Made by a program: the position numbers and the translations under genes. Positions 7,173 to 31,385 of a stretch of DNA of 32,000 nucleotides are shown here, piece after piece (the first letter of the stretch is position 1; every line of letters begins with the position of its first letter). The stretch is from Mycoavidus cysteinexigens (GTDB lineage: Bacteria; Pseudomonadota; Gammaproteobacteria; Burkholderiales; Burkholderiaceae): NCBI GenBank assembly GCA_031963245.1, contig JASSUC010000016.1, forward strand, positions 15,800 to 47,799. Direction: 5' to 3'. A model generated the notes under the pieces. It had not been told where the DNA came from. It ran no database searches and worked only from the letters and a program-made list of their open reading frames with translations.

Positions 7173-7814
7173 TTAATTAGGACGGTTTGGCTTCAAGCCA
7201 GCGTAGCCTTCTTCGCGAATGACGCGTGGGATAATTTCGCGTGGCTCAATGGTTACCGGCTGATAAATCACCCGTTTTTGCTCAGGGTCATAACGCATCT
7301 CAACGTAACCAGAAATCGGGAAATCTTTGCGGAATGGATGACCAATAAAACCATAATCGGTCAAAAGACGGCGCAAATCCGGATGCCCGTCAAAGACTAA
7401 ACCGAACAGATCAAATGCTTCGCGCTCATACCAATCGGCTGAACTCCAAATATCAATCACCGAAGGCAACACTGGCAGCTCATTATTTGGCGCAAATACT
7501 TTGACGCGTAAGCGCCAATTATGGGTAATCGATAAGAGATGCGAGACAGCGGCAAAACGAGGACACATCGACTCATCTTGAGCGACAATAAGTTCGCGCT
7601 TAGCAACTTCGTCATACACGGAATAATCAACACCGCACAAGTCAATCAGTTGCTCAAAGCACAACGAAGCTTCATCGCGTAGCGTGCGCATCACATCGAG
7701 ATACTGGTTGGCATGGACCACGGCTGTAATCTGCCCAAACGCATGCGTCATGCGCACATCAGTACCAAAGGTTGCCTCGAGATTCGCCATGAGCGCTGCG
7801 AGCTTGCTTGTCAT
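7173..7814 (-). CDS. nuoC: NADH-quinone oxidoreductase subunit C (30-kDa subunit)
   Basis: The track ORF (7173..7886) would overlap nuoB by 11 nt. Homologues begin at the internal ATG at 7814 ([17 protein letters not shown]..., compared with recalled Burkholderia MASKIETLKANLEAALG). Conserved motifs are [12 protein letters not shown] and [19 protein letters not shown]. Confidence 0.9.
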
Positions 7815-7875
7815 TGAGGAAGACCCCACTTCAAATACCGTATCAAAAATTTTGCTTAACTGGCTTGCAGAGAAA

Positions 7876-8352
7876 TTAGCGCGCAATCGTATTCGTGCGA
7901 GTGATCTTAGCCTGCAACTGAATAATGCCGTAAATTAGGGCCTCAGCCGTCGGTGGGCAGCCTGGCACATACACATCAACCGGCACAATCCGGTCACAAC
8001 CCCGGACGACAGAATATGAGTAATGATAGTACCCCCCCCCATTGGCGCATGAGCCCATCGAAATCACCCAGCGCGGTTCTGCCATTTGGTCATAGACTTT
8101 GCGCAATGCACTGGCCATTTTGTTACACAGCGTACCCGCCACAATCATTACATCGGCTTGACGCGGACTGGGCCGAAACACAACACCGAAGCGATCGAGA
8201 TCATAACGGGACGCACCCGCATGCATCATTTCAACCGCGCAGCAAGCAAGACCAAACGTCATCGGCCATAACGAGCCCGTGCGCGTCCAATTAATCAGCT
8301 TGTCCGCAGTGGTGGTAATAAACCCTTCTTGCAGGACGCCTTCAATACTCAT
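7876..8352 (-). CDS. nuoB: NADH-quinone oxidoreductase subunit B (20-kDa, N2 cluster)
   Basis: 158 aa, [83 protein letters not shown]. This is near-identical to the Burkholderia NuoB I recall. Confidence 0.95.
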
Positions 8353-8416
8353 AACTTTGCGCTCCGCTCCAGATCCGCATTAATCTGCCTTCTGCATTTG
8401 CTATATCTCACCCTGA

Positions 8417-8776
8417 TCACTCCCAGTCGAGTCCGCCTCTTCGCCAGATATAGGCGAAACCCAGCACAAACTCGAGCAGAAAAATCATCATCGCGAGAAA
8501 GCCCGGCCAGCCAATATCTCTAAGCGCCACGCCCCACGGAAACAGAAAGGCGGTTTCTAGATCAAAGATAATAAACAGAATCGCGACTAAGTAATAGCGC
8601 ACATCAAATTTCATGCGCGCATCTTCAAATGCCTCAAAGCCACATTCGTAAGGGGCATTTTTCTCGCTATTCGGGCGATTGGGGCCCAGTATCTTGCCGA
8701 TACCGAGCAATATCATACCCAAACCCGTGCCCACGAGGATAAAGAGCAATACAGGAAACCAAGCTGCGAGGTTCAA
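8417..8776 (-). CDS. nuoA: NADH-quinone oxidoreductase subunit A
   Basis: 119 aa, [20 protein letters not shown]...[42 protein letters not shown]. It is the first gene of the operon. Confidence 0.95.
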
Positions 8777-17908: not shown

Positions 17909-18643
17909 TCACAGCTGGCCACGATAGTGATAACGAGCGTATTTGAACAATCTCGCCACACGGCCAATGCGGGTTGGCTGGGCCAGCACTCGGTAGAGCC
18001 ACTCTAAACCTAAGTATTGCCATACTTTGGGAGCTCGTTTAACCGTACCGCTAAAGACATCGAAGGTGCCACCGACCCCCATATACAATGCATTTGGATA
18101 AATTTGCTGGCAGTTGCGCATAAAGAGTTCTTGTTTGGGCGAACCCAGAGCAACCGTGACCAGCGCGGCGCCACTCTCTTGAATCGCTTGAAACAGTGCT
18201 GAGCGCTCTTCCTCTTTAAAGTAGCCACTATGGCTACCCACAACCTTAACGCCCCAAGCCGCCACCAGCTTATGCTCTACTTTGGCTAACACCTCGGGCT
18301 TACCGCCCACGAGAAATATCGGTATGCGTCGCAAGCCAGCGCTTTTCATCAAAGCTTGCCACAAATCAACGCCAGCGATGCGCTGCAGACAAGATGCTGC
18401 GGCATACTTTCGCTTAATCGAACGAACAATGCTGATGCCATCGGCATATTTGTATTCGGCAGAGTTAATTAACTCGCTGAGGAGCGGATTTTGTTCCGCT
18501 AAAATTATTTTTTCAGCGTTAATCGCAACCAGCATACCTGTTTTCAATGCACCATCGGCCAGCAGGTAATCGACAAATTGAGCTTGCTCCTGAAAACCCA
18601 AAATGCCAATGCCGCGAATCTCATATTTTGGAATAGCACTCAT
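17909..18643 (-). CDS. wecG: UDP-N-acetyl-D-mannosaminuronic acid transferase (ECA lipid II synthesis), WecG/TagA/CpsF family
   Basis: From the internal ATG at 18643 ([11 protein letters not shown]...) the 244-aa product is collinear with recalled E. coli WecG of 246 aa (LVAINAEK; [17 protein letters not shown]; [16 protein letters not shown]; [12 protein letters not shown]; [42 protein letters not shown]). TGATG start/stop overlap with wzyE. The 58-codon upstream extension in the track ORF lies inside wzyE. Confidence 0.92.
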
Positions 18644-19968
18644 CAAACTCCTCCGATTTTTTGCTGCTTGTGCCGGCCAGCTATCAATAAACGGTACAAC
18701 AATTTGGCCAATAGCAGGCATGAGCCAAAGACCAAACAATAGAATCCTAGGCGCGAAACAAAGGAATCTAATCCCTCCCTGACCAAAATAACAATGTGAA
18801 ATAACAGGCCAAAGCAAAAAGCCTGGATCGTGGCGCTCGTATAGCGATTCTGTGTATCTCTGGCCGAGCGATATAAGCCATCAAGCCCTCTAATAATCAG
18901 ACCGACCATCATCGCCCCCAGCACAAAGAGCCACGCCCCCCCCATAATCAGAAACGATCCAATCAGGGTGGGTGAAAGTGCCACGGCAAAGTATTGCCGT
19001 ACCTGCCAAGTAAAATAATTAGCCGTATTCAGCACTAGGCTCGGACGTTCAGGCCATAACCATTGAGGAATATAGACATAGAAATCGCGAACAATTGGCG
19101 CTAACCCTTGGAAATCGATTTCACGATACCTCTCTAATAACAGCGCCAGATTTTCCCAAGGCGAAAAAGTGTCGCGCGTTAGGTAAAGCAGCGTCTCTAT
19201 CCGCTCCGCCCCCTGAACATTGAGCCCGTAACGCTGTAACGCCAGCCACGTCATCACGCCAATCGCCGCCACCCCAGAAAACAGCAGTGTTCTAAGCCGG
19301 ATATGATGATCGGCAATACCAATAAATAAAAACAAGGCGAATGACAAAGCGATATTGGCGCGTGTGCCCCCAACCGCAAAATAACTGAGTACGCCAAAGC
19401 TGATGGTGGCGACAAGAAACATTAGCCAAGATTTAACGCTCGGCCGCAGGAAATAAAGCACCAGCATAGCGGGTATAAAAAAATAGAAAAAGCGCTTAAG
19501 GGGAAGTAAAAAAAGATCTTTAGAAAAGAGGCGTTGGCCATAGCTACGTGAGCTAAAAAATAGCCAGCCATTATTTAGAATAAAGACCAGCAAAGCCACT
19601 ACAGCCATCAACGCCAGCAGCATCCACAGCAAATGAGTTTCTTCACGCTTCATGGTGAGCCAGGATGACCTTGAACGCCAAAACGGTGGCAGCTTAACTT
19701 TGTAGGTTGCGTAGTAAAGCGTATAAAAACCAGCCGGCAACAGCAACGCATACGCTAGATAACGCGGTGGTGAGATAGGCAAACCAAAATGCAGCACAAG
19801 CCAACAAGAGAACGGAAAACCAAGATAAAAAGTGGATAGATAAGCCAGCGAAAAGCATAGATTGAAACTAAATCCGACTAAGCGGAACTCACGATAAACA
19901 AAAGTCAGCACAAAGGCACCGGCTGCCAACCAGAGCATTAAAAGAACCAGAGAATTAGCAAGCGTCAT
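18643..19968 (-). CDS. wzyE: ECA polysaccharide polymerase (Wzy-type)
   Basis: 441 aa from the ATG at 19968, with a GGAGAG Shine-Dalgarno 7 nt upstream. It is collinear with recalled E. coli WzyE ([19 protein letters not shown]; GGTRANI; [60 protein letters not shown]; [10 protein letters not shown]; AKLLYRL). Confidence 0.92.
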
Positions 19969-21052
19969 CGAGCATCTCTCCATTGACAATCGCCAACGCG
20001 CGTTGCCAGCCTGTGATGTAATTAGGATTGAAAAAAGCAATCTGGGTCTGATCTAATTGAGTCATTCGGTGCTGGGTTTCACGCACAATCTCGGGGCTCA
20101 AGTCATCGCCATGAAATAACACTGGTACGCATTGCTCAGCAAGATCTTGCTGGAAAGGGTTTTGCCGGCTGATGACAAATGGGATACAGAATTGGATCAA
20201 CAAGCATAGTGTGCCAACCCCCTGCTGCCGATTAAAAAGAAAATAGCCCAAATCACATTGCATTAAGAGCTTTCTATATTCGTTAAAATCAATCACGGTA
20301 TTGATGAACTCGACCTGCTCCGGCGCAAATAATTTTTCAGCTTCGGCGCGAATCTCATTGCCATATAGATCGTTGCCCGATGGATAGCCAAAAGGCAGCA
20401 GGATACGCACCTGCTTGCCAAATTGCTGGTAAATCGCCCGCAATGCTTCAATATGGCGATTCGAGCGATCGCCAGAGTTGCCCAGCAAAATCGTCAGCTG
20501 CTTACTTGCAGGCTTCGGCAACCGAGGGAGAGTGTGTGCCGCTGGCATACGGGTCGGAAAATAAAGCAGTTGCATCGGAACCTGCGGATAGCGCTGCCGA
20601 TAATAAGCCAGGTCTCCGCGAGTAGCAAACACCCGCCCAACACGCCCTTGTACGCAGCGCCTTAACAAATAAAACAGCCTAAATCGAAAGCCAGTTGCAT
20701 CTTCATAAAGATCTGCCCCCCAAATATGCCAGCTCACTTGTGCTGCGCGAATGCGGCCAGTCAGGAGCAGGAGCCAAATACCTAGATTAAACTGACCATG
20801 AAAAAAGAAGCGCTGCTCACGGCACTTTTTTGCCAGCACGGCTACGGCCTTCGCCAGCGCTCGTTTATCCGCTAACACTCTCACCTGCAATGCCGGGTAA
20901 TTGCCCAATTGCGCCGGCTCTCGAGCAACCACCCAAAAACACAATGGCATTTTAGATGGTGGCAACTCTGGTGCAAGTATGTCATTAAAAAAGCTCAGCA
21001 CCGTCCGATTGTGGTGCTCAATATCAGAACCCAAAATATGGATGACAGACAC
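19955..21052 (-). CDS. wecF: TDP-N-acetylfucosamine:lipid II N-acetylfucosaminyltransferase (4-alpha-L-fucosyltransferase)
   Basis: 365 aa with a GTG start at 21052, directly after the wzxE TGA and with AGGAGGGAG upstream. It is collinear with recalled E. coli WecF (HILGSDIEHHNRTVLSFFND; QRFFFHGQFN; WHIWGADLYE; FATRGDL; LLYFPTRM; LGNSGDRSNRHIEALRA; CDLGYFLFNRQQGVGTLCLLIQ; GWQRALAI). Confidence 0.92.
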   Translation of the reverse strand: MSVIHILGSDIEHHNRTVLSFFNDILAPELPPSKMPLCFWVVAREPAQLGNYPALQVRVLADKRALAKAVAVLAKKCREQRFFFHGQFNLGIWLLLLTGRIRAAQVSWHIWGADLYEDATGFRFRLFYLLRRCVQGRVGRVFATRGDLAYYRQRYPQVPMQLLYFPTRMPAAHTLPRLPKPASKQLTILLGNSGDRSNRHIEALRAIYQQFGKQVRILLPFGYPSGNDLYGNEIRAEAEKLFAPEQVEFINTVIDFNEYRKLLMQCDLGYFLFNRQQGVGTLCLLIQFCIPFVISRQNPFQQDLAEQCVPVLFHGDDLSPEIVRETQHRMTQLDQTQIAFFNPNYITGWQRALAIVNGEMLDDAC

Positions 21053-22315
21053 TCACTCCCTCCTATTGCAATAGATGAAAAATAGGTACACACATAAAGC
21101 AAAATAAACCGCATACGTCGCCGCGTAAGCCTGTACAGTCCCAAGCGCACCGCCGATTGGAATCAACCAGTGCGAAAATAATAAGAGCAAACTAAACTGG
21201 AGCGTTTCTGCTAATACATAAAAACGTAGGGAGGCTTTCACAATGATTAAATAACCGAACACATAAGCACCTACTTTGAACACATCACCGCTCAGCTGCC
21301 ATGCAAAAAGATCGCGCATCGGCCTAAAGTCAGCGGAGAACAATACTCCAATCACCACATCGCGCAATAGCCACACACTGAAACTCAAGCCTAGCGCCAG
21401 CGGTAACAAAAAGCGTTGCGCCCGGCGAATCTCATACGCCAAATCTTGTTTGGTTTTGAGCCTAGCCAGGGTCGGCAGCAAATACACGGTAACCGGTGCT
21501 GTAATCAACTGTAGATAAGCATCCGATATCTTGCTCATGCCCTGCCAAATGCCAACCTCCTGCCAACTATAATGCGTCGCCAGCAACTGCCGTATCATGA
21601 CGTAAGCAAGCGGCAGCGTGAGCGAAGTGATAAGCGCCATTGCGGTAAATTTGAACAAACCACGAGCGAGGGTGCCATCCCATGTGAACTTTAACCCATG
21701 CCACGATATGACCTTGCGTTTAAGCAACGCTATCGCTGCCGGCAAGATCAACAACGCCGGCATCAATGCTAAGCCGATCAGCGCCCCTGCATAGCCACCT
21801 AGACGGCAAGCCAGCCAATATGCCCCCAGACCTAACAGACTGCCACTCATGACCGATAGCGCAGCGCCCTTCGCATCGCACCGGCCTTTTAGAATGGCCA
21901 AACACAAATTAGCAAAGGCAATACCGAATTGAATCAAGGCCACGACTCGCAGCACATCCTGCAAATCTTCGCGACCAAACAATAATCGACTTAGAGGGGC
22001 GGCAGCCCCTATCAGCACGAGCGCCAGTAACCCTGAAGAGCTAAGCACGATAAGTGCAGAGGTGCCAAACAAACGGTGCGAGCGGACTGCATCAAACTGA
22101 AATTCAGCAACGTATTTGGTCACCCCATTGTAAATACCCGCGCCAGATAACACGCCCAACACCGTGATCAGCGTCATAAAATTTCCGGCGCAGCCTACCC
22201 CCTCTGGACCAAAGGTCAGTGCTAATAATTTGATAAGCAGGAGTCCCACTGCCAATTTGATCAGGATGGCAGCCGTAGACCAGACCGAAGCTCGTGCTAA
22301 AGATAGTTTAGGCAA
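21053..22315 (-). CDS. wzxE: ECA lipid III flippase (Wzx, MOP superfamily)
   Basis: 420 aa, collinear with recalled E. coli WzxE of 416 aa (LARASVWSTAA; FGPEGVG.AGNF..LITVLGVL.GAGI.NGVTKYVAE; YSWQEVGIWQGMSKISDAYLQLITA; VYLLPTLARL; MRDLFAWQLSGDVFKVGAYVFGYLIIVKASLRFYVLAE). Confidence 0.92.
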   Translation of the reverse strand: MPKLSLARASVWSTAAILIKLAVGLLLIKLLALTFGPEGVGCAGNFMTLITVLGVLSGAGIYNGVTKYVAEFQFDAVRSHRLFGTSALIVLSSSGLLALVLIGAAAPLSRLLFGREDLQDVLRVVALIQFGIAFANLCLAILKGRCDAKGAALSVMSGSLLGLGAYWLACRLGGYAGALIGLALMPALLILPAAIALLKRKVISWHGLKFTWDGTLARGLFKFTAMALITSLTLPLAYVMIRQLLATHYSWQEVGIWQGMSKISDAYLQLITAPVTVYLLPTLARLKTKQDLAYEIRRAQRFLLPLALGLSFSVWLLRDVVIGVLFSADFRPMRDLFAWQLSGDVFKVGAYVFGYLIIVKASLRFYVLAETLQFSLLLLFSHWLIPIGGALGTVQAYAATYAVYFALCVYLFFIYCNRRE

Positions 22316-22583: not shown

Positions 22584-23714
22584 ATGAAAAAAATATTAAC
22601 TGTTTTTGGCACGCGCCCGGAAGCCATCAAAATGGCGCCGGTTGTGCGTGCTCTTAGCAAACATACTCAATTTGAAGCTAAAGTGTGCGTTACCGCACAA
22701 CACCGACAGATGCTTGATCAAGTCTTGACTCTTTTCAATATCAAGCCCGATTTCGATCTAAATATCATGCAGCCAGGGCAGAATCTCTTCTCCATCACAG
22801 CCAACATCCTGGAAAGCTTCAAACCTGTGCTAATGGAATACCAACCTGATTTTGTTCTGGTCCATGGCGATACTGCAACCACCTTTGCTGCCTCGCTAAC
22901 GGCTTATTACTTAAAAATTCCGGTCGCGCATGTCGAGGCGGGTTTGCGCACCGGCAACTTGTATTCACCCTGGCCAGAAGAGGCCAATCGTAGATTAACC
23001 GGCACCCTGGCGCATTTACATTTCGCCCCCACAGCGCAATCACGCGACAATCTTCTGAAAGAAAATATCGCCGCTGAGCGTATCGTGGTAACCGGAAATA
23101 CCGTGATTGATGCGCTCTTAGAGGTTAAACAAAAAATCGTCAGCAACCCTGAACTGGCCACTCGCCTGGCCAAACAATTCCCACAGCTCAATCGCACACG
23201 ACAGCTGGTGCTCATTACCGGACATCGCAGAGAGAATTTCGGCGATGGCTTCGAACGTATTTGTACCGCCATCGCAACCCTTGCCAAACGCTATCCCAAG
23301 GTCGATTTCGTTTATCCGGTTCATCTTAATCCGAATGTGCAAGAACCCGTCCAACGCACCCTCAAAGGCATCAGCAATATTCACCTGATTGAGCCACTGG
23401 ACTATTTGCCGTTCGTCTACCTGATGATGCGCTCAACTCTGATCCTCACCGACTCGGGAGGCGTGCAAGAAGAAGCCTCATCACTTGGCAAGCCAGTCTT
23501 GCTCATGCGAGAAAATACAGAGCGCCCCGAAGCATTAGAGGCAGGTCTCGTACGTCTGGTCAGTACGGATATCGACACCTTGTGCCAACAAGTTAGTCTG
23601 CTGCTTGATGACCTAACCGAATATAACCAGATAAGCGCGCACGCTCATAACTTATATGGAGATGGCAAAGCATCTGAGCGCATCGTGCAAACGTTAGCTG
23701 CCTACCAAGCATAA
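22584..23714 (+). CDS. wecB: UDP-N-acetylglucosamine 2-epimerase (non-hydrolysing)
   Basis: 376 aa, the same length as E. coli WecB, and collinear throughout ([19 protein letters not shown]; [16 protein letters not shown]; DLNIMQPGQ; VLVHGDT.TT; [21 protein letters not shown]; [10 protein letters not shown]; TGHRRENFG; YPVHLNPNV; [28 protein letters not shown]; [10 protein letters not shown]). Confidence 0.95.
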
Positions 23715-23804
23715 TTAGACACGGGTAAAACACGGTGGGCAATTCACTCGACCCGCATCATACATTGATCAAGGGTTGGCAAATTTTTTGCTTAAAAAAT
23801 TTCT

Positions 23805-25100
23805 ATGAAACATACGAATTTTAAGAAAGTATGTGTAGTCGGTCTTGGCTACATTGGCCTACCTACTGCCGCGATACTGGCGTCCCGAAAAGTCAAAGTG
23901 GCCGGCGTCGATATCAACTCCCACACAGTCGACACGATTAATGCGGGAAAGATTCATATCGTTGAACCCGAGCTTGACATTATCGTGCGCGCGGTGGTGC
24001 AAGAAGGCTATTTAAAAGCTTCAACGCAACCTGAAGCAGCCGATGCATTCATCATCGCCGTACCGACACCTAGTAAGAAAGATCATCAACCTGATCTAAG
24101 TTATGTGCGCGCAGCAGCCGAATCAATCGCACCGGTACTCAAGCCAGGTGATTTGGTGATCTTGGAATCCACTTCCCCCGTGGGCACCACCGATCAGATG
24201 ATCGCTTGGCTCACCATAGCTCGACCCGATTTATCCTTTCCTAACCCCCAGCAAGAAAACGACATACCTGATGTCAATATCGCGTATTGCCCTGAGCGCG
24301 TGCTACCCGGCCAAGTCATACGTGAACTGGTGCAAAACGATCGCATTATCGGCGGCATAACAACCCGCTGTGCCCAGCGCGCGCAAGCGTTATATCGTGT
24401 CTTTGCGACAGGAAAACTGCTGACCACCAACGCCCGCACAGCAGAAATGGCTAAGCTGACAGAAAACGCTTTCCGTGATGTCAATATCGCATTCGCAAAT
24501 GAGCTTTCGCTGATTTGCGACCAACTCAGCATTAATGTATGGGAGTTGATTAAACTCGCCAATCATCATCCCCGGGTGAATATACTGCAGCCGGGTCCGG
24601 GCGTCGGCGGCCATTGTATTGCAGTTGACCCTTGGTTTATCGTCAGTCGCTCACCTGAGCAGGCAAAACTCATTCGAACCGCCCGACAAATCAATGACCA
24701 TAAGCCAGAATGGGTGATTAACAAAGTTAACGAAGCGATTGATCAATGTCTGGCAAGTGGTCAACGTGCGGTCCGCCAAGAAGTTGTCGTTGCCTTACTG
24801 GGATTAGCATTTAAGCCTAATATTGATGATTTTCGAGAAAGTCCGGCAGCGCATATTGCAAAAAAACTACTCGCGACTTCAGAGGCGCGCTTTATTGTGG
24901 TTGAACCTTTTATTGACCAGTTGCCAGCCGATCTAGCTCACGCCCACTTGGCAGAGTTAGAGCCAGCGCTAGCCGCAGCCGATGTCATCGCCGTCTTAGT
25001 CAAGCATGATTGTTTCAAAGCCATGATCAAACTGCTTAACCCCCCAGCACGCCTAATCGATGCTGTAGGGATCTTAGAAGACGCTGAGCATCTTCAATAG
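23805..25100 (+). CDS. wecC: UDP-N-acetyl-D-mannosamine dehydrogenase
   Basis: 431 aa, collinear with recalled E. coli WecC (VVGLGYIGLPTAA; GVDIN.HTVDTIN.GKIHIVEPEL; IIAVPTP; LESTSPVGTT; VNIAYCPERVLPGQV..EL..NDRIIGG; RTAEMAKLTENAFRDVNIAFANELSLIC; INVWELIKLANHHPRVNILQPGPGVGGHCIAVDPWFIV; GLAFKPNIDDFRESPA). Confidence 0.95.
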   Translation: MKHTNFKKVCVVGLGYIGLPTAAILASRKVKVAGVDINSHTVDTINAGKIHIVEPELDIIVRAVVQEGYLKASTQPEAADAFIIAVPTPSKKDHQPDLSYVRAAAESIAPVLKPGDLVILESTSPVGTTDQMIAWLTIARPDLSFPNPQQENDIPDVNIAYCPERVLPGQVIRELVQNDRIIGGITTRCAQRAQALYRVFATGKLLTTNARTAEMAKLTENAFRDVNIAFANELSLICDQLSINVWELIKLANHHPRVNILQPGPGVGGHCIAVDPWFIVSRSPEQAKLIRTARQINDHKPEWVINKVNEAIDQCLASGQRAVRQEVVVALLGLAFKPNIDDFRESPAAHIAKKLLATSEARFIVVEPFIDQLPADLAHAHLAELEPALAAADVIAVLVKHDCFKAMIKLLNPPARLIDAVGILEDAEHLQ

Positions 25101-25114
25101 CTTCTTTAACCGTC

Positions 25115-25166
25115 ATCAAATAGAGAACGTCCCCTCAATGATCAAATAGAGAGCGTTCCCTCAATG
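25115..25166. repeat. 26-nt tandem duplication (2 copies, 2 mismatches) spanning the stop codon of the beta-helix gene
   Basis: 25115..25140 is atcaaatagagaacgtcccctcaatg and 25141..25166 is atcaaatagagagcgttccctcaatg. The second copy encodes the gene's last residues IEGTLSI plus its stop. The extra copy would read IEGTFSI plus stop. It fills most of the 41-nt spacer between the convergent wecC and beta-helix genes. Confidence 0.9.
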
Positions 25167-27253
25167 CGGACTCTAGTACTGGATGGCGGTGCAACCGCAT
25201 CAAGCTGACCTTCCTCGATACGCCCTGTCTCAAGCAAAAATGAAGGCGGGGTAAAAGCGGCTGGAGCCAGTAAAATTTTGCCGCGCACAAAATGGACATG
25301 AGTGGCTTGATAGTGATTCACCCCATCCACTAACTGAATATGCGCTACGTTTGCGTGCGCTACGATGCTACGGTAAGGTCCTAAACGCCAATGGATCAGG
25401 CGATCATTGCCAACGCGAGACAATAGAGCGCCTTGATTGGCGGTATTTGACAAGACGGTATTACCGGCTAGGGTGAAGTGCTGCTCAGCGGTACCGGTTA
25501 AACATAGGGCAACATTTTCAATACGGCACGCATCTAATGTCATGTTATGCGCTGCGATCCACAGAGAAGCACTTGCTCGATTGCCCTCAAAAGTGCAATT
25601 ATTGAAGAAAATAGCACTGTGAGCATAAACCGAATTTCTTTCGACTGGCGGCAAGTGCGTTTGGCAATACCGGCCGAGATGATCTTCTGCGCTGCTGGTT
25701 AAATCATGCCGACTATCCAGCCTGAAACTACAGCCATTGAAGGTATTCAACCGGCAAGATAAAGCCGTATGCTGAACCAAGGTCAGTTCACTCGCCACCG
25801 TGCAGCCTCGCAGTTGAACTCCATCCGCATTAAGTCGCATAATGCCGGTATTGGGCCGGCCCTCCACTGGCAACACATGGACATCATCCAATGTTAGGTC
25901 AGTGACTTTCTCATTGGCAATAAAAAGTGTACAGGTGTGGTTGCGTACCGTAATGCGTTTGGCTGAAGCCCCCCACTGCTTGCCTGAATTAGCAAAAGAT
26001 ATCGCACCCACATTCCCTGAGTAGACTAGGTCATGCTCATATTGCCCGTGCGTCACAAAGGCGCCATCATGATCACCATTGCTATGACAATTTTCTACGG
26101 TGCAATATGCACTCGAAACAAAATCATTCAGATGCCGAGCATTGGCAGAGCTACACTCCAGAATATGCCCGTAAAGACAATGGATATGCTGTGCTAAGTA
26201 ACCCGCACCGCCATACTTGATGTTGACCGGATTGGTTAATGAACACCGTTCAGTGCGAAAGAATGTGCACCAGCGCCTGATAATGGCGCTCCAGAAAGTT
26301 CCCTCTGCATGAATTGCCGATACATTACAGGACACCGCATATTCAAACGCAATCGGGTGAGAGCCGGTATTTGGAGCCGTGCCATGTCCGCTAAAGCGCA
26401 TATTGCTAATATGGACCTGTTCAATAACCCTCACCTGCGCCCACCGGATCTGCCGCCCTGCTGATAAAGGCCAGCCATTTTTATAATTGACCCGAACCTG
26501 CTTTGCATCAATAATTTGGGTAATTTGGACTAACTTTTGCAGTTCTTTGGCTAAACGCTCGCCCGGTGCGTCAGACTCAAGCCGATACCACTGCCCAACA
26601 GAAAATTTGCTTGCATCACTAACCGGAAAAATATCAGTCTGTTCCGGCAAGACTGCATGCAAGGTGACCGTATCCGTATTGGCAGCAGGCTTACCACTAA
26701 AAAACAGCACCGCCGCCAAAGCGTTAATCTGTTTCGCACCAACCGGCTCAATCCCGAGTGTAGTCACCGTTTGACCTCCAAAATCCAGCGTCAGGTTGCT
26801 ACGATAAAAATGGTGGCGACGAACAAAATTGAGTGGCGTATGCGCCTCGATACGATGAATCGTAGGATCATTCACCATCGCCGCCAGCGCATCATCTGCA
26901 TTCGTCTCTGCATTAAAAACACCAAATTGCCTAAAATCGACAATCCCTTCATGCAGTTGAAGCCAGCGACCTTTAGCCTGGCTCACAGCAGCAATAACCG
27001 TGCCACCGTTGATCATCCGTTCAGAAGATGCATCCCAATAAGCCAGCATCCCGCCGCCGTCGCCAGCACTGTAATAACCTAATGTGATAACCACCGTACC
27101 GTCCCCCGGCTGCGTAAGACCTAATGCGATCAAAGCGGCAACTGACGTAACCGGTTTGATCGCATTTGCCGACAGGGTTGATTTTAAAGGCGCTAGAGCG
27201 AATCCACCGGCGGCCATGCCTAGAACTGTGCTTAAAAAATAACGGCGCGTCAT
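25142..27253 (-). CDS. Tat-signal secreted right-handed parallel beta-helix protein (pectate-lyase fold; putative periplasmic or extracellular polysaccharide glycanase/lyase)
   Basis: Start placed at the ATG at 27253, with a GGAGAGGAGAG Shine-Dalgarno about 8 nt upstream. This gives MTRRYFLSTVLGMAAGGFALAPLKSTLSANA|IKP, which has the twin-arginine consensus (T-R-R-x-F-L), a hydrophobic core and an AxA cleavage site. The N-terminal domain resembles pectate-lyase-superfamily or tailspike N-domains (GYYSAGDGGGMLAYWD...NGGTVIA...GRWLQL..G.VDFRQFG). The remainder is a series of PbH1-like coils of about 22-25 aa (HISNMRFSGHG; VSCNVSAIHAEG; CSLTNPVNI; CTVENCHSNGDHDGAFVTHG; ITVRNHTCT; LTLDDVHVL; VQLRGCTV; NTFNGCSF; FFNNCTFEG; MTLDACRIEN). 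Function is inferred from fold and context only. Confidence 0.6.
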   Translation of the reverse strand: MTRRYFLSTVLGMAAGGFALAPLKSTLSANAIKPVTSVAALIALGLTQPGDGTVVITLGYYSAGDGGGMLAYWDASSERMINGGTVIAAVSQAKGRWLQLHEGIVDFRQFGVFNAETNADDALAAMVNDPTIHRIEAHTPLNFVRRHHFYRSNLTLDFGGQTVTTLGIEPVGAKQINALAAVLFFSGKPAANTDTVTLHAVLPEQTDIFPVSDASKFSVGQWYRLESDAPGERLAKELQKLVQITQIIDAKQVRVNYKNGWPLSAGRQIRWAQVRVIEQVHISNMRFSGHGTAPNTGSHPIAFEYAVSCNVSAIHAEGTFWSAIIRRWCTFFRTERCSLTNPVNIKYGGAGYLAQHIHCLYGHILECSSANARHLNDFVSSAYCTVENCHSNGDHDGAFVTHGQYEHDLVYSGNVGAISFANSGKQWGASAKRITVRNHTCTLFIANEKVTDLTLDDVHVLPVEGRPNTGIMRLNADGVQLRGCTVASELTLVQHTALSCRLNTFNGCSFRLDSRHDLTSSAEDHLGRYCQTHLPPVERNSVYAHSAIFFNNCTFEGNRASASLWIAAHNMTLDACRIENVALCLTGTAEQHFTLAGNTVLSNTANQGALLSRVGNDRLIHWRLGPYRSIVAHANVAHIQLVDGVNHYQATHVHFVRGKILLAPAAFTPPSFLLETGRIEEGQLDAVAPPSSTRVRIEGTLSI

Positions 27254-27293
27254 AAGTAATCTCTCCTCTCCCTTAACACGCATCATATTCGAA

Positions 27294-27316
27294 AAAATTG
27301 ATTTTTTATCAATTTT
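27294..27316. promoter_or_regulatory. AT-rich 9-bp inverted repeat in the divergent promoter region between the beta-helix gene and the GT4 transferase gene
   Basis: aaaattgat (27294..27302), then ttttt, then atcaatttt (27308..27316). This is a possible operator; the sequence alone gives no further support. Confidence 0.25.
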
Positions 27317-27425
27317 CCCCTATAAGTGGAGACGAGTAATAAATAAAATTCGTGGGTCTTCTGCATAATGAATCTGATGAAAGAAGAGCTTCTTTAAACG
27401 TGTTGTAGCTAGAAAAATATTGACT

Positions 27426-28556
27426 ATGCTTAATTTCACGCTCAGCTTTACTGTCTCAACCCTGGTCATTTTTTTGATTGTGCGTTATCAGCATTTGCAT
27501 GGCCATTTATCGGCTGATCACAGCCTGTCCGGCCCACAAAAAATCCATCAGCAATCCGTACCACGTATCGGCGGCATTGCGATCCTCGCCGGCCTCACCG
27601 TAGCCGCCGGTCAGCTTTACCGCAACGATCCGCGCCTTTCGTTGAACATATTATCCCTCGTCGCCTGCGGACTGCCGGCTTTTTTAGCAGGCCTCACCGA
27701 AGACTTCACTAAACGCGTAACGCCATTCATTCGCCTCAGCTGTACGATAGCTGCCGCCGGCCTGGCCTATTTCTTGCTTGACCTTTATGTGACACGCACC
27801 GGCATTGCCCTGCTTGACTCGGTCATCGCTTATCCGGCTCTCGGCTGCCTCTTTACCCTACTTGTGGTCGCAGGACTGGCCAATGCGATTAACTGCATCG
27901 ACGGCATTAATGGCTTAGCTGCAATGATTACGTTTTTGATGTCGGCATCGCTTGCCTACGTTGCACAGCAAGTCTCTGACACGCTCATACTTTCGGCAGC
28001 ACTGATTATGATGGGCGCCATTCTCGGTTTTTTTATTTGGAATTTTCCGACTGGACGGATTTTTATGGGCGATGGTGGCGCTTATTTCATTGGCTTTATG
28101 TTAGGTGAATTATCTATTTTATTAGTCATGCACCATCCTGAGGTTTCTGCTTGGTACCCTGTCTTAATGCTACTTTACCCAATTTTTGAAGTGTGTTTCT
28201 CAATCTATCGCAGACGCTTCTTACACGGCACCTCAGCCACCTTAGCAGATGATCGGCATTTACATACATTGATTTACAAACGGCTCATGCGTCCAACGGC
28301 GAACGCACAAGGTACGCGCACGCTGACCCAGTGTAATGCACTGACTGCCCCTTACCTTTGGCTGTTATATTTGATTGCAGGGGTGCCGGCAACACTCTTT
28401 TGGCAGCATACCGCCGTGCTAGTTTGCTTCGCTATAGTGTTTATCGCAGCTTACGTCTGGCTTTACGCCAGTATTGTGCGGTTTAAGACACCATGGTGGC
28501 TATTGTTTGGCCGACATCGCACACGCATGCAAGCAAACGTTCCCACTAATGATTAG
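27426..28556 (+). CDS. Polyprenyl-phosphate N-acetylhexosamine-1-phosphate transferase, glycosyltransferase family 4 (MraY/WecA/WbpL family); probable initiating enzyme of the locus
   Basis: Polytopic membrane protein carrying the family motifs: PRIGGIAILAG; LTEDF (the D-D/E-D Mg site); NAINCIDGINGLA (NxxNxxDGxDGL); IFMGDGGAYFIGF; D..HLHTLI (the HIHH equivalent). By eye it is much less similar to E. coli WecA than the neighbouring Wec proteins are to their E. coli counterparts. The start is the ATG at 27426 or the TTG at 27420. Confidence 0.8.
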   Translation: MLNFTLSFTVSTLVIFLIVRYQHLHGHLSADHSLSGPQKIHQQSVPRIGGIAILAGLTVAAGQLYRNDPRLSLNILSLVACGLPAFLAGLTEDFTKRVTPFIRLSCTIAAAGLAYFLLDLYVTRTGIALLDSVIAYPALGCLFTLLVVAGLANAINCIDGINGLAAMITFLMSASLAYVAQQVSDTLILSAALIMMGAILGFFIWNFPTGRIFMGDGGAYFIGFMLGELSILLVMHHPEVSAWYPVLMLLYPIFEVCFSIYRRRFLHGTSATLADDRHLHTLIYKRLMRPTANAQGTRTLTQCNALTAPYLWLLYLIAGVPATLFWQHTAVLVCFAIVFIAAYVWLYASIVRFKTPWWLLFGRHRTRMQANVPTND

Positions 28557-28686: not shown

Positions 28687-29820
28687 TCAGGCAAAGTAGC
28701 GGGTAACAGCGTCTATCACAGCGCGGTGGGTAATATCTGTCATGTTATAGAAAAGCGGCAGCCGCACTAAACGCTCACTATCTTTGGTTGTGTATCTATC
28801 CTCACCATGGAAGACACCAAACCGTTGCCCCGCGGGAGAGCTATGCAGTGGAACGTAGTGAAAAACAGCCAGAATACCGGCGTCGCGCATCGCGCTAATA
28901 AAAGCATTACGATCTTTAATGTCACGCAGTTTGAGATAAAACATATGTGCGTTGTGGTCACAGTCTGGCGCAATAGCCGGTAGTTCAATGTGCCCTTGCT
29001 GCGCCAAAGACTGAAATGCCTGAAAATAGCCGTGCCACAATGCAAGACGGCGCGCGTTGATCTGCTCGACTGCCTCTAGCTGCGCCCACAGATAGGCTGC
29101 CTGTAAATCAGACATCAGATAGCTAGAACCGATGTCTCGCCACGTATATTTATCCGTCTGACCACGCAGGAATTGGTTGCGATTTGTCCCTTTTTGACGA
29201 ATAATTTCCGCTCGTTCGATCTGTTCAGCCTGGTTGATCAAGATAGCGCCACCTTCCCCACCCGCGGTATAGTTCTTGGTTTCGTGAAAGCTGTAACACC
29301 CAATGTGGCCGATACTCCCCAGCGCACGACCTTTATACGTGGCAGCGACCCCTTGTGCGGCGTCTTCTACCACCCACAGCTGATGTTGGTCAGCAATCGC
29401 CATAATTGCATCCATCTCACACGCAACGCCGGCATAGTGAATTGGCACGATCGCTCGAGTTCTGCTGGTGAGTGCCGCTTCAATCCGGGTCTCGTCTATA
29501 TTCATGGTGTCAGGACGCACATCCACAAAGACAATTTTGGCACCACGCAGCACAAACGCATTAGCGGTGGAGACAAAAGTAAAACTGGGCATCACCACTT
29601 CGTCGCCTGGCTGAATATCGAGCAAGATAGCCGCCATTTCCAGCGCTGCCGTACAAGAGGGGGTGAGCAGCACTTTGTGGCTGTGAGTATACTGTTCAAA
29701 CCACTGTTGGCAGCGTTGCGTAAAGTGACCATCACCATTTAGCACATTACTGGCTAACGCAGATTGGATATGGCCTAATTCAGTGCCGACCAGAGCCGGC
29801 GTATTAAATGGAATCATCAT
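28687..29820 (-). CDS. wecE: dTDP-4-amino-4,6-dideoxygalactose transaminase (PLP-dependent, DegT/DnrJ/EryC1 family)
   Basis: From the ATG-ATG at 29820/29817 (MMIPFNTPALVGTELGHIQSA) the product of about 377 aa is collinear with recalled E. coli WecE of 376 aa. Long identical runs include VLLTPSCTAALEMAAILLDIQPGDEV.MPSFTFVSTANAFVLRGAKIVFVDVRPDTMNIDET; HYAGVACEMD; VVEDAAQGV; YKGRALG.IGHIGC.SFHETKNYTAGGEGGA; KGTNR.QF.RGQ.DKYTWRDIGSSYLMSDLQAAYLWAQLEA; and EDRYTTK.SERL.RLPLFYN. The start lies 1 nt after the wecD stop. The upstream extension in the track ORF overlaps wecD. Confidence 0.95.
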   Translation of the reverse strand: MMIPFNTPALVGTELGHIQSALASNVLNGDGHFTQRCQQWFEQYTHSHKVLLTPSCTAALEMAAILLDIQPGDEVVMPSFTFVSTANAFVLRGAKIVFVDVRPDTMNIDETRIEAALTSRTRAIVPIHYAGVACEMDAIMAIADQHQLWVVEDAAQGVAATYKGRALGSIGHIGCYSFHETKNYTAGGEGGAILINQAEQIERAEIIRQKGTNRNQFLRGQTDKYTWRDIGSSYLMSDLQAAYLWAQLEAVEQINARRLALWHGYFQAFQSLAQQGHIELPAIAPDCDHNAHMFYLKLRDIKDRNAFISAMRDAGILAVFHYVPLHSSPAGQRFGVFHGEDRYTTKDSERLVRLPLFYNMTDITHRAVIDAVTRYFA

Positions 29821-29821
29821 C

Positions 29822-30571
29822 TCACTTATATAGCCAATAGGAAATTCCGGCCAGCTGAGCGCCACTGGCAATATAAAGGCTCATTGCACTCAGGTTGCTG
29901 GTTTGAGTTGCCACGCTTAACTGCTTGACATTGCGCGCCGCACACCAGTGCCGCGCAGCCTTGATTAATACTTTACCTAAGCCGCGGCCAGTCAAATCGC
30001 GGCGGACGGCTAGCAAGCCAATACGAGCTGCATCGGGCGTCAACTTGCGCACCGTGACAAAACCATGAATGCCGCTGGTATCTTCAATCACCAGGCAGGC
30101 ATGATCGAAAAGACCACGCACCGCATTTTCTGCCCAGACTTGGTAGAAGCGATCACGCTCCTCCTCCGTGTACCAAGGCGCACGAAAGCGGCTAGCAGCA
30201 AATAGCCCTTTGGCGACGGCACGTATAGCCAAGATATCCGGTTCAGAGGCAATCCGATAATTTTGCGTATCGGCTAATGCGTTAATCGGTAAGCTGAAAT
30301 CAGCCTCACCTTCGATAAATTGGAAGCCAAGCTTAACCAGCTGATCCAATAAGTCAAGTCGATTAGCTGGAATCTTGCTTTGTATAATATCGAAGTCTGT
30401 CAACACAATTTGCGCTAGCGACGTGCCTTGACGATCAAAAACCAACCTAGCGCACTTGCAAGCGAAAAATTCACTCTCCCATGCGAGCGGCTCAAGTTCG
30501 GCGCGCAATGGGTGCTCTTGATTACATGGTGCAGGTGCGCGTTGTGGTTCAATGATGCGATCTGATTGCAC
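29822..30571 (-). CDS. wecD: dTDP-fucosamine (dTDP-4-amino-4,6-dideoxygalactose) N-acetyltransferase, GNAT family
   Basis: 249 aa from a GTG at 30571 with a GGGGAG Shine-Dalgarno 8 nt upstream. It is collinear with recalled E. coli WecD/RffC (LEPLAWESEFF; LGFQFIEGEADFSLP; SRFRAPWYTEEERDRFYQVWAENAVRGLFDHACLV; ARIGLLAV; VATQTSNLSAMSLYIASGA....YWLYK). The N-terminus is about 20 aa longer than in E. coli, so the start is uncertain. Confidence 0.88.
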   Translation of the reverse strand: MQSDRIIEPQRAPAPCNQEHPLRAELEPLAWESEFFACKCARLVFDRQGTSLAQIVLTDFDIIQSKIPANRLDLLDQLVKLGFQFIEGEADFSLPINALADTQNYRIASEPDILAIRAVAKGLFAASRFRAPWYTEEERDRFYQVWAENAVRGLFDHACLVIEDTSGIHGFVTVRKLTPDAARIGLLAVRRDLTGRGLGKVLIKAARHWCAARNVKQLSVATQTSNLSAMSLYIASGAQLAGISYWLYK

Positions 30572-30800: not shown

Positions 30801-31385
30801 TTATCTGTCGAATCCCTCATCAACAATTCTGCTGAGCTCTGGCAATTCACATTCATATGCAATATCGACTATAGAATTTCCCTCTCTATCTTGTCTATAG
30901 AGAATGTCAGTTTTGCCATCATCAATAGCCTTGTTAACTAAAAATTCGGCTATCTTATAATGGTTGGGTTTGTAATTTTCACTATATGATTGGATCTGTT
31001 CGGAATAATTCTCACCGTGTAACATTTGACATGCAATATGTAACGCCGTCAACGAACTCATATCCTGCTCACCTGTTGGGAATTGATACTCATTACATAA
31101 AACTTTAACTGCTTCAAGTTCGCCCGCCTGAACTGCTTTATGGAGAACATTACTTGCACGGTCGTCAACGTTGGCTCGATTGCCTGGTACTCGTTGCAGG
31201 GCACTCCCTCTCGCCGAGATTCCTTGCCTCCATTCTAATATAGAGCGGTCCGATTCGAGAATATCTCTAATCAAATCAACATTACCATTATCAATTGCAC
31301 TTAATAGATCGTTAATCGCGTTATACTGCACTTGATGAAAACTAGCAGACTGGACTGAAGAGTGATTAATTCCGTGGATTGGCAT
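30801..31385 (-). CDS. Ankyrin-repeat protein (eukaryote-like domain; candidate secreted effector)
   Basis: 194 aa with an AAGGAG Shine-Dalgarno 8 nt upstream of the ATG. ANK-like helix-turn-helix repeats are present (LLSAIDNGNVDLIRDILE; NVLHKAVQAGELEAVKVLCNE; TALHIACQML; IAEFLVNKAIDDG). It has a Ser-rich polar N-terminus (MPIHGINHSSVQSASFHQVQ) and no signal peptide. It is visibly more AT-rich than its neighbours. Confidence 0.7.
   Translation of the reverse strand: MPIHGINHSSVQSASFHQVQYNAINDLLSAIDNGNVDLIRDILESDRSILEWRQGISARGSALQRVPGNRANVDDRASNVLHKAVQAGELEAVKVLCNEYQFPTGEQDMSSLTALHIACQMLHGENYSEQIQSYSENYKPNHYKIAEFLVNKAIDDGKTDILYRQDREGNSIVDIAYECELPELSRIVDEGFDR

Follow-up and report, generated by a model that had tools for sequence, protein, structure and literature searches.

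Degradative periplasmic enzymes encoded together with biosynthetic genes are known from synthase-dependent polysaccharide systems, AlgL, BcsZ, PslG and PelA being examples. Among Wzx/Wzy systems, the closest described case is WceF of Pantoea stewartii, whose structure we take to be PDB 6TGF and whose counterpart in Erwinia amylovora is presumably AmsF. WceF, of 736 aa, has been reported to carry a Tat signal and to form trimers of a tailspike-like beta-helix; its gene lies in the stewartan Wzx/Wzy cluster, the enzyme cleaves stewartan, and mutants give longer EPS (PMC7949094). The colanic-acid cluster of E. coli, also of the Wzx/Wzy type, contains WcaM, with a Tat-type signal and a predicted beta-helix. 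As for enterobacterial common antigen (ECA), we know of no enzyme that specifically degrades it, and a search of titles and abstracts for ECA in combination with depolymerase or tailspike found none.

The gene analyzed here lies in a wec locus of Mycoavidus, a betaproteobacterial endosymbiont of Mortierella and not an enterobacterium, within a stretch of DNA of 32,000 nucleotides (the window). The original prediction had presented its product as a candidate glycanase dedicated to the ECA locus. The features considered are the following:

17909..22315, minus strand: wzxE, wecF, wzyE and wecG (flippase, Fuc4NAc transferase, polymerase, ManNAcA transferase); equivalog matches above cut-offs
22584..25100, plus strand: wecB and wecC (UDP-ManNAcA precursor genes); TIGR00236 505 bits and NF008286 664 bits, above cut-offs
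25142..27253 (stop codon included), minus strand: coding sequence of the 703-aa Tat-signal beta-helix protein, PF27114 family; based on the ORF, full-length homologues, the structural model and dN/dS
25970..26212, minus strand: run of invariant motifs, codons 348-428, a candidate catalytic groove; invariant alignment columns, with a putative catalytic role
27161..27253, minus strand: twin-arginine signal peptide MTRRYFLSTVLGMAAGGFALAPLKSTLSANA, codons 1-31; based on sequence, family-wide RR and low pLDDT, with predicted cleavage before I32
27261..27274, minus strand: strong Shine-Dalgarno sequence AAGGGAGAGGAGAG, ending 7 nt from the beta-helix ATG
27298..27312, no strand assigned: palindrome TTGATAAAAAATCAA in the divergent intergenic region between the beta-helix and GT4 genes; from alignment, identical in 5/5 Mycoavidus loci
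27420..28556, plus strand: divergent GT4 (MraY/WecA-superfamily) initiating transferase; Pfam Glycos_transf_4, and ECA_wecA at 80.5 bits against a cut-off of 326
28687..30571, minus strand: wecE and wecD (dTDP-Fuc4NAc transaminase, acetyltransferase); TIGR02379 662 bits and NF008212 284 bits, above cut-offs

The parallel with WceF extends to size (~700-736 aa), Tat signal, tailspike-like beta-helix and location in a Wzx/Wzy cluster among glycosyltransferase and precursor genes, and it gives the idea of a cluster-encoded glycanase a precedent (PMC7949094). However, no sequence relation between the two proteins was detected, with no WceF chain among the PDB sequence matches at E <= 1 of either the Mycoavidus protein or its family profile, and WceF was not among the best 50 Foldseek matches of the Mycoavidus model. 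WceF homologues are consistently found in Pantoea/Erwinia EPS clusters, whereas PF27114 is otherwise catabolic or unlinked; the polymer would be ECA-type instead of stewartan, and the host is an endofungal betaproteobacterium. Cleavage of the own product and an effect on chain length, shown for WceF, are here proposed. AlgL, BcsZ, PslG and PelA are more distant parallels, with other folds and families, Sec instead of Tat and other export pathways. The comparison with WcaM made in the original prediction stands as a likeness in architecture but not as homology: WcaM has 464 aa as opposed to 703, an NCBIfam match is absent, and the hhalign probability was 1.2%, with the signal peptides alone aligning.

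Gene, signal peptide and fold of the beta-helix protein

The beta-helix ORF is intact on the minus strand of the window, and full-length homologues of its product reach E = 0. An alternative, longer ORF could start from an ATG at 27286; an indel puts it and the beta-helix start in different frames in Mycoavidus sp. B2-EB, and gene callers assign 703 aa to every orthologue. The strong Shine-Dalgarno sequence that had been predicted was found at the expected place, and is kept in four of the five Mycoavidus loci and partly in B2-EB. The palindrome upstream may include a -35-like TTGATA and/or constitute a regulator site. It was detected by alignment only; a scan of positions 24900-27600 for consensus promoters and terminators gave nothing exceeding shuffled expectation and left it unflagged.

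The N-terminus of the protein (M-T-R-R-Y-F-L-S, a hydrophobic stretch and S-A-N-A followed by I) matches the (S/T)RRxFLK Tat consensus, and according to the AxA rule the signal would be cleaved before I32, after Ala31. An RR-x-hydrophobic-hydrophobic motif is present in 38 of 42 aligned family members, R3 and R4 being at least 90% conserved in the family, and residues 1-30 are of low confidence in the AlphaFold2 model, as expected of a signal peptide. The twin-arginine signal of the original prediction is therefore borne out by the consensus match, the AxA site and the arginine pair kept across the family. The mature protein contains 15 Cys (2.2%), 33 His (4.9%) and 39 Asn (5.8%).

The model (pLDDT 86.8, pTM 0.86) shows ~50 short strands from residue 134 to residue 698, and can be assigned with confidence to the right-handed beta-helices. 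Foldseek matched it to beta-helical tailspike depolymerases over 550-740 alignment columns, so that the earlier estimate of at least 10 coils, judged from the strands and these long alignments and not from a count on the coordinates, appears reasonable. The top matches were the capsule/O-antigen tailspike depolymerases K64-1 S2-4 (9k4a), the NTUH-K2044-K1-1 K1 lyase (7w1c), AP22 gp54 (4y9v) and LKA1 gp49 (4ru4), with E = 1e-13 to 1e-9; including Fri1 gp49 (6c72), the range was E = 1e-13 to 1e-6 with TM 0.4-0.5, and BFVD tailspikes matched at up to E = 1e-17. The structural check suggested with the original prediction returned a confident model with depolymerases as its best matches. At the sequence level, the PF27114 profile has weak links to 6c72 and 9k4a, the similarity covering the N-terminal cap and first coils (for Fri1 gp49, residues 38-120, E = 6e-6). 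Differences with tailspikes are the low identity (10-13%), the Tat signal that replaces the virion-binding domain, and the chromosomal location of PF27114 genes in cellular genomes, with 1 viral contig match.

Weaker Foldseek matches corresponded to GH28, GH87, GH110 and PL6 (E = 1e-6 to 1e-3, TM 0.14-0.23), which have the general fold in common with the Mycoavidus protein and differ in their motifs. The expected HMM assignment to a Beta_helix, pectate-lyase or GH28 family failed, all scores being below threshold: Beta_helix reached 21.4 bits (threshold 25.9, E = 2e-4), PF12708 12.8 bits (threshold 27, E = 0.1, residues 387-459) and NosD 10.8 bits (threshold 23.6), with 0 Pfam or NCBIfam matches above threshold for GH28, GH87, GH110, PL6 or the pectate-lyase superfamily. 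The proposed pectate-lyase-like N-domain is only loosely supported, in that the match to the Fri1 gp49 cap favors it and the sub-threshold PF12708 match, located at 387-459, does not.

A homologue search with the protein gave 465 matches, the best outside Mycoavidus with 44-50% identity over 92-100% of the query and E-values down to 1e-213. The family label, PF27114 "Phage_tail_beta", comes from the precomputed Pfam match of two orthologues, P0001 (95%) and P0002 (80%). PF27114 is a large uncharacterised family; its members are beta-helix proteins of ~700 aa with a Tat signal, which databases often call "peptidase C14" or hypothetical, and our literature search found no paper mentioning the family. 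Its motifs GGAGYLxQ, NARHLND, GD, THGQYEHDL and ANSGxxWG follow one another on successive coils, with invariant columns at G348-Q355, N371, R373, H374, D377, D394, H402, Q404, E406, H407, D408 and N422-G428, so that invariant Asp, Glu and His residues occupy consecutive coils of the beta-helix. The window protein keeps every family-invariant column (347-355, 371-377, 401-408), which suggests a substrate shared with the rest of the family, not necessarily ECA.

The wec locus of Mycoavidus and the origin of the gene

Eight wec/wz equivalogs (wecB, wecC, wecD, wecE, wzxE, wecF, wzyE and wecG) score above the NCBIfam cut-offs in this locus, and the window WecF is 53% identical to that of E. coli. 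The GT4 protein was rejected as a WecA orthologue, given its sub-cut-off score and 28% identity to E. coli WecA. ORFs for wzzE, rffG and rffH were not found in this locus, in agreement with the absence of WzzE noted in the original prediction. Its description of the gene arrangement was also accurate: the beta-helix gene is divergent from the initiating transferase, with a 166-bp gap, and convergent with wecC, the stop codons being 41 bp apart, and comparison with the wec cluster of E. coli K-12 corroborated that such a gene is lacking there. Neither transporter nor catabolic genes were found beside the Mycoavidus beta-helix gene. A literature search linking Mycoavidus with ECA returned no paper, and a published gene inventory of M. 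cysteinexigens lists flippase and polymerase as absent (PMC5877345); against that inventory, an ECA-type cluster is present in this betaproteobacterial fungal endosymbiont.

The slot between the divergent GT4 gene and the convergent wecC is identical in all five Mycoavidus loci, including that in the 1.88-Mb genome of B2-EB. Other parts of the locus vary, one of the loci (L008) having a NACHT-WD40 insertion and an extra flippase gene. Within Mycoavidus, the beta-helix gene is under purifying selection (dN/dS 0.11-0.15). Its dS to B2-EB is 0.98, equal to that of wecC, wecF, wzxE and the GT4 gene, and its G+C content equals that of its neighbours; on these two grounds, there is no support for a recent transfer of the beta-helix gene alone.

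In a neighbour-joining tree the Mycoavidus protein groups with Yersiniaceae with 100% bootstrap, and the wec genes are also closest to Yersiniaceae, the best matches of WecF being from Serratia, Yersinia and Rahnella. A relative-rate comparison between Mycoavidus and Yersiniaceae, made with co-transfer in mind, gave the beta-helix protein a far higher rate than WecF within Yersiniaceae. The Mycoavidus copy belongs to the proteobacterial (Yersiniaceae) branch of the family and would have arrived by horizontal transfer, like the Enterobacterales-type wec genes around it; since then, it would have been kept in one slot of the cluster, with an upstream region of its own that faces the initiating transferase.

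Relatives outside Mycoavidus and their gene neighbourhoods

A scan of 185,579 species genomes identified 416 PF27114 relatives, the majority in actinomycetes. The scan listing comprised the best 80 and the neighbourhood survey the best 77 loci among the 416; Mycoavidus sp. B2-EB carries the gene, yet it is not among the matches listed in the scan. Genes of the wec type were located within 10 kb in 2 of these best 77 loci, both from Mycoavidus, and in 0 of the other 75, and polysaccharide-synthesis genes were not linked to any relative outside Mycoavidus in the same set. A lack of co-occurrence with polysaccharide loci, which the original prediction had named as refuting it, is thus what these best loci show outside Mycoavidus.

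The prevailing arrangement, in 54-69 of the best 77 loci, is that of a conserved catabolic locus. In actinomycetes, it consists of two tandem paralogues at the head, an IclR regulator, a GFO oxidoreductase, a sugar ABC importer and sugar-acid pathway enzymes, along with a class-III aminotransferase, a lactonase-type amidohydrolase, an enolase-superfamily dehydratase, an SDR and a fumarylacetoacetate-hydrolase-family enzyme. We tentatively liken these enzymes to an oxidative/non-phosphorylative 6-deoxyhexose or uronate pathway to which a transaminase would be added. As clues to the substrate, this locus provided 0 NCBIfam equivalogs past cut-off, and the additional Pfam matches were generic. 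The Yersiniaceae homologues (Rahnella, Rouxiella, Ewingella-like and Serratia-like, all of them ECA-producing) are located outside the wec cluster, with psiE/pgi, a LacI regulator, or Tc toxin genes plus a gsp cluster as neighbours. In the Ewingella-like case the gene faces the LacI regulator, which is beside PTS and SIS genes, and the Serratia-like copy adjoins a gsp type II secretion cluster. The gene is absent from most Enterobacterales. By analogy with these contexts, PF27114 would normally serve extracellular glycan breakdown. Since the relatives are catabolic or unlinked and the Yersiniaceae copies lie away from wec, the enzyme is not a general component of ECA clusters; at most, there would have been a co-option to the ECA cluster in one lineage.

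Possible substrates and roles

Starting from the observed gene, signal motif, fold, family membership, conserved linkage and purifying selection, we infer catalysis, substrate and final location of the beta-helix protein. It probably cuts polysaccharide, and it is plausible that it acts on the product of its own cluster. By analogy, we tentatively favor, with a confidence somewhat below even, a depolymerase of the WceF type, periplasmic or on the surface, recruited for trimming the wec-locus product. This Tat-exported tailspike-fold enzyme, hydrolase or lyase, would, as WceF, fold in the cytoplasm and lose its signal after Ala31 upon export; the groove of invariant NARHLND, GD and THGQYEHD coils would bind an ECA-like Wzx/Wzy polymer in the periplasm or at the cell surface, and its cleavage would limit or reshape chain length without a Wzz co-polymerase, or free fragments. 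The initial idea of an ECA-locus glycanase thus holds as regards the Tat signal, the tailspike fold, the invariant residues and the stable linkage to a wzz-less wec cluster, and fails as regards a general link with ECA. M. cysteinexigens has been reported to possess Tat but to be devoid of sugar importers, chitinolytic enzymes and several components of the T2SS (PMC5877345), which speaks for the periplasm as end-point and against a role in nutrition; the T2SS statement is weak evidence, because the inventory proved unreliable with respect to flippase and polymerase. Counting against a depolymerase of the locus product are the fact that synteny is conserved anyway in reduced endosymbiont genomes, the possibility that adjacency to wec is a side effect, the genes having come together or one after the other from a Yersiniaceae-like donor, and the catabolic actinomycete context, the Yersiniaceae copies off wec and the lack of the gene in most Enterobacterales.

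These same facts could indicate that the protein has kept its ancestral job and attacks an exogenous glycan, for example a wall or storage/surface glycan of Mortierella, during colonisation, transmission or exit, its position among the wec genes being fortuitous, a result of horizontal transfer from one type of donor. The original prediction had already raised a host polysaccharide as a caveat. We consider this the main rival, of lower probability than the first reading but serious: the catabolic locus predominates among the best 77 loci, the Ewingella-like and Serratia-like copies have the regulatory, PTS/SIS and gsp neighbours described above, and, since the beta-helix gene and WecF both point to Yersiniaceae-like donors, their co-arrival is plausible. 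Several carriers are also fungus-associated or mycolytic, such as Ewingella on mushrooms and Oerskovia and Cellulosimicrobium on yeast walls, and Mycetohabitans enters Rhizopus with secreted glycanases. However, the tie to a fungal polymer is conjecture, no transporter or catabolic partner has been kept beside the gene, and a chance insertion in the middle of a ~12-kb cluster of a 2-3-Mb genome is improbable, as is retention across dS ~1. In addition, host-invasion enzymes, sugar importers and T2SS parts are reported as lost in M. cysteinexigens (PMC5877345), and because of the loss of T2SS parts a Tat substrate would stop in the periplasm.

The beta-helix fold is common to epimerases, lyases and binding proteins, and Foldseek gave weak PL6 lyase matches; these facts, along with Tat export and a gene next to the uronic-acid precursor genes wecB and wecC, would also fit a polymer-modifying enzyme, such as an AlgG-like uronate C5-epimerase on ManNAcA, or a non-catalytic glycan-binding or export scaffold protein. 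AlgG offers a parallel, being a beta-helix epimerase of the periplasm whose gene lies in a biosynthetic operon. We regard such a role as improbable, given that the best structural matches are depolymerases and not epimerases, and that the importer and catabolic enzymes of actinomycetes call for chain cleavage; the profile scans gave no match to any alginate-epimerase family, and those that did appear, Beta_helix, Pect-lyase_RHGA_epim (PF12708) and NosD, were all sub-threshold. Least credible by far, and contradicted by the present results, is a peptidase, an adhesin or autotransporter passenger, or a prophage tailspike remnant, as database names ("peptidase C14", Phage_tail_beta) and weak PHROG matches might suggest: the Peptidase_C14 domain is absent from the window protein and all 42 family members in Pfam; the Pfam/NCBIfam scans revealed no barrel or adhesin domain and gave no support to a NosD-like copper protein; and 1 relative appeared among 2.9 million viral contigs, with no phage genes near the window gene or the related loci inspected, and with a Tat signal and no virion anchor in the protein.

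If the enzyme does cleave the polymer made by the wec locus, ECA research would gain a reagent, and there would be a case of a glycanase controlling chain length in place of a Wzz co-polymerase. A more far-reaching proposal, which we put forward as a long shot, is that PF27114 as a whole has ECA-like polymers with a high content of ManNAcA and amino-6-deoxyhexose as its specific substrates. Were this true, the Mycoavidus enzyme would be the first dedicated ECA depolymerase and would set chain length in a Wzz-less pathway borrowed from Enterobacterales, and the actinomycete locus would be a hitherto unrecognised utilisation locus for bacterial surface polymers. Should a Mortierella glycan be the target, the protein would be a candidate of a rare kind, an enzyme directed at the host in a symbiont from which such functions are reported as lost. 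For the family, the analysis presents PF27114, often mislabelled "peptidase C14", as a probable family of secreted tailspike-fold glycanases without a characterised member, and as the marker, in many actinomycetes, of a conserved orphan locus for polysaccharide utilisation.

The wec locus of Mycoavidus

The gene under study lies inside a cluster whose wec genes were named with NCBIfam models, at scores above the curated cut-offs.

Genes of the wec locus (window coordinates and strand)
17909-22315, minus strand: wecG, wzyE, wecF and wzxE (NCBIfam)
22584-25100, plus strand: wecB and wecC (NCBIfam)
25142-27253, minus strand: beta-helix coding sequence, an open frame of 703 codons
27420-28556, divergent from the beta-helix gene: GT4 transferase
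28687-30571, minus strand: wecE and wecD (NCBIfam)

Whereas the 12 wec genes of E. coli K-12 are collinear and have no comparable gene among them, the Mycoavidus cluster occupies both strands, with the beta-helix gene convergent with wecC; wzzE, rffG and rffH were not found in the window's wec locus. The GT4 protein, the initiating transferase of the cluster, was considered as a WecA orthologue and rejected, since it scored 80.5 bits where the cut-off is 326 and is 28% identical to the WecA of E. coli. As mechanically called, wecG and wzyE overlap by 175 bases (18643-18817) and wzyE and wecF by 86 bases (19955-20040), because these frames begin at TTG or GTG codons upstream of the probable true starts; in orthologous loci the genes are called shorter, at 244 aa and 441-442 aa. 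Further neighbours in the window are the nuo operon, bamC, mdtABC and a gene for a 194-aa ankyrin-repeat protein (30801-31385, minus strand), which directly adjoins the wec cluster. In intracellular symbionts, eukaryote-like proteins with such repeats are typical effector candidates.

Orthologues of the beta-helix protein are 95-96% identical in M. cysteinexigens metagenome-assembled genomes (MAGs) and 80% identical in Mycoavidus sp. B2-EB, and the G+C content of the window (around 49%) agrees with the 48.9-49.0% published for M. cysteinexigens (PMC5877345). The WecF of the window is 53% identical to that of E. coli, and its best matches outside Mycoavidus (55-59%, in Serratia, Yersinia, Chania, Brenneria, Rahnella and Rouxiella) belong to Yersiniaceae and Pectobacteriaceae. 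Given these orthologues in Mycoavidus and the WecF relatives in Enterobacterales, the locus is a rearranged, Enterobacterales-derived cluster of the ECA type, carried not by an enterobacterium but by a betaproteobacterial endosymbiont of Mortierella. A literature search found no paper linking Mycoavidus with ECA.

The arrangement in which the gene is divergent from the GT4 gene and convergent with wecC is identical in the five Mycoavidus loci. Pairwise dN/dS values of the beta-helix gene are 0.11-0.15, and at 0.98 its dS to B2-EB is equal to the values for wecC, wecF, wzxE and the GT4 gene (0.85-0.98). Given this constant arrangement and equal divergence, the gene has travelled with the cluster since before the Mycoavidus lineages split, and selection on it is at least as strong as on the wec genes, even in the 1.88-Mb genome of B2-EB. 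A palindrome, TTGATAAAAAATCAA (27298-27312), lies between it and the GT4 gene and is identical in all five loci, including the divergent B2-EB; a consensus scan called no promoter in this upstream region, and the palindrome may serve both genes as a -35 element or as the site of a regulator. Elsewhere the locus varies: in a related Mycoavidus MAG locus (L008), a 1675-aa NACHT and WD40 gene of eukaryotic, NLR-like type (3497-8524) stands between wecE and the GT4 gene, and an extra Polysacc_synt flippase-like gene (19421-20671) follows wecG; both are absent from the window.

A predicted tailspike fold in a cellular family

The start codon is preceded by AAGGGAGAGGAGAG, 7 nt upstream. A second, in-frame ATG is present further upstream, at 27286; its counterpart in B2-EB is out of frame because of an indel, and all orthologues are called as 703 aa. 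The N-terminus, MTRRYFLS-TVLGMAAGGFALAPL-KSTLSANA/I (the slash marks the predicted signal peptide boundary), fits the Tat consensus, with a hydrophobic core followed by an AxA site. The twin arginine is characteristic of the family: conservation of R3 and R4 in the family alignment reaches at least 90%, and RR-x-hydrophobic-hydrophobic occurs within the first 40 residues of 38 of 42 members. The mature chain contains 15 Cys, 33 His and 39 Asn. The original prediction had described a Tat-exported beta-helix protein rich in these residues, and this description was correct, as the open frame, signal peptide, composition and fold model all agree with it.

Pfam alone would not settle the fold (Beta_helix at E = 2e-4, below threshold, and PF12708 at E = 0.1). 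An AlphaFold2 model built on a 42-sequence alignment (pLDDT 86.8, pTM 0.86) has about 50 short strands between residues 134 and 698, with disorder limited to the signal peptide and one loop, 519-535. Its top PDB matches in Foldseek, with TM of 0.4-0.5, are phage tailspike depolymerases, the best being K64-1 S2-4 (9k4a, E = 2e-13), followed among the leading matches by the Klebsiella K1 capsule lyase 7w1c, AP22 gp54, LKA1 gp49 and phi297 gp61; GH87, GH110, PL6 and GH28 enzymes match far more weakly. Comparison with BFVD agreed in placing tailspike depolymerases ahead, and the family profile reached two tailspike sequences, 6c72 (E = 6e-6) and 9k4a (E = 3e-5). Many positions of the family alignment are invariant, mostly on successive coils, as are five Cys.

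Invariant motifs of the family alignment (residues of the Mycoavidus protein)
348-355: GGAGYLxQ
371-377: NARHLND
393-394: GD
401-409: THGQYEHDL
421-428: ANSGxxWG

A carbohydrate-active role had been tied in the original prediction to conserved acidic residues and, with these motifs on the coils, the protein does have conserved Asp and Glu, along with His.

The protein belongs to an uncharacterised family, PF27114 ('Phage_tail_beta' in the precomputed Pfam assignments). A protein search retrieved 465 relatives, those outside Mycoavidus being 44-50% identical over nearly the full length, and 416 were found among 185,579 genomes, taken one per species. Most of those from the protein search come from actinomycetes (Streptomyces, Nonomuraea, Micromonospora, Microbispora, Kribbella, Oerskovia, Cellulosimicrobium and others), with a few from Rahnella and Rouxiella. 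Despite its predicted tailspike fold the family is cellular, with a single relative among 2.9 million viral contigs. Hundreds of members (homologues P0005-P0120) bear the public-database name 'peptidase C14', which is probably a propagated misannotation, since a scan of 42 members showed no caspase (Peptidase_C14) domain in any of them.

Genomic context of the relatives

In actinomycetes the homologues are two tandem paralogues behind an IclR regulator. On their 3' side lie genes for a GFO/IDH/MocA oxidoreductase, a CUT1-type solute-binding protein with two permeases, and NAD-epimerase-like, DHDPS-like, 2-hydroxyacid dehydrogenase and fumarylacetoacetate-hydrolase-family proteins, while a divergent operon encodes a class-III aminotransferase, an enolase-superfamily dehydratase, an Amidohydro_2 protein and an SDR. 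The 77 best family loci were queried by tblastn, within 10 kb, with the proteins of this locus and nine wec proteins of the window: each of the former was found in 54-69 loci, and the latter in the two Mycoavidus loci only. The actinomycete locus is thus built as a polysaccharide-utilisation locus, with secreted depolymerases, oligosaccharide import and intracellular catabolism. Its proteins gave no match above cut-off to equivalog models; we infer that the enzyme set resembles non-phosphorylative oxidation of a 6-deoxyhexose or uronate, plus a transamination step. The locus stands as an orphan catabolic locus conserved in many actinomycetes (L005, 1-18187; L006; L007; 54-69 of L012-L088).

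Neighbour-joining places the three Mycoavidus proteins with all other proteobacterial members, apart from the actinomycetes, in 200 of 200 bootstraps. These other members are all from Yersiniaceae (Rouxiella, Rahnella, Ewingella-like contigs and a Serratia/Chania-like contig). One homologue lies between psiE and pgi, one has a tandem paralogue, and none of those inspected is inside a wec cluster, though these genera possess one. The Ewingella-like copies (L010, L092) are divergently paired with a LacI-family regulator, followed in L010 by a double-SIS protein and a PTS EIIBC, a context suggesting that in Yersiniaceae the gene may respond to sugars. On the Serratia/Chania-like contig (L091, 1-22103) the homologue has Tc insecticidal toxin genes (TcA/TcB-type) on one side and an apparently complete gsp type II secretion cluster on the other, with a transposase fragment adjoining it.

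Possible role of the beta-helix protein

WceF of Pantoea stewartii, a 736-aa protein with a Tat signal, forms a trimer of tailspike-like beta-helices. Its gene belongs to the stewartan Wzx/Wzy cluster, stewartan is the polymer that it cleaves, and mutants produce larger EPS (PMC7949094). The Mycoavidus protein is like WceF in architecture and genomic setting, and WceF is its closest functional precedent, although neither WceF nor the colanic-acid protein WcaM of E. coli is a sequence relative. By analogy with WceF, and because the locus has no Wzz, the reading we tentatively favour is that the protein trims the ECA-like polymer of its own locus: it would fold in the cytoplasm, be exported by Tat, be cleaved after A31 and then work, either in the periplasm or on the surface of the cell, as an endo-depolymerase. 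This is supported by its stable embedding, by the absence of catabolic partner genes beside it and by a report in which M. cysteinexigens has Tat but neither sugar importers nor chitinolytic enzymes, with several T2SS components also missing (PMC5877345). The gene inventory in that report is weak evidence, since it counts the antigen flippase and polymerase among the absent genes, which the wzxE and wzyE of the window contradict.

The comparative evidence does not point to ECA in particular as the substrate. The catabolic context throughout the family, and the fact that its other members show no wec linkage, favour the main rival reading, in which the protein would keep an exogenous substrate, in the symbiont a host glycan, and would be found in the wec cluster because both came from Yersiniaceae-like donors. 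The position of the gene in mid-cluster and the lifestyle of the symbiont argue against this, and we consider it somewhat less likely than trimming of the locus polymer. That the protein is a polymer-modifying epimerase or a binding protein seems improbable, and a peptidase, an adhesin or a prophage relic, which the domain scans and the viral-contig search contradict, is least credible of all.

As WceF shares both architecture and setting, a cluster-encoded, Tat-exported, tailspike-like glycanase is already known as a concept. We know of no dedicated glycanase for ECA-type clusters, and what is new here is the different protein family, the ECA-type cluster and the betaproteobacterial endofungal host.
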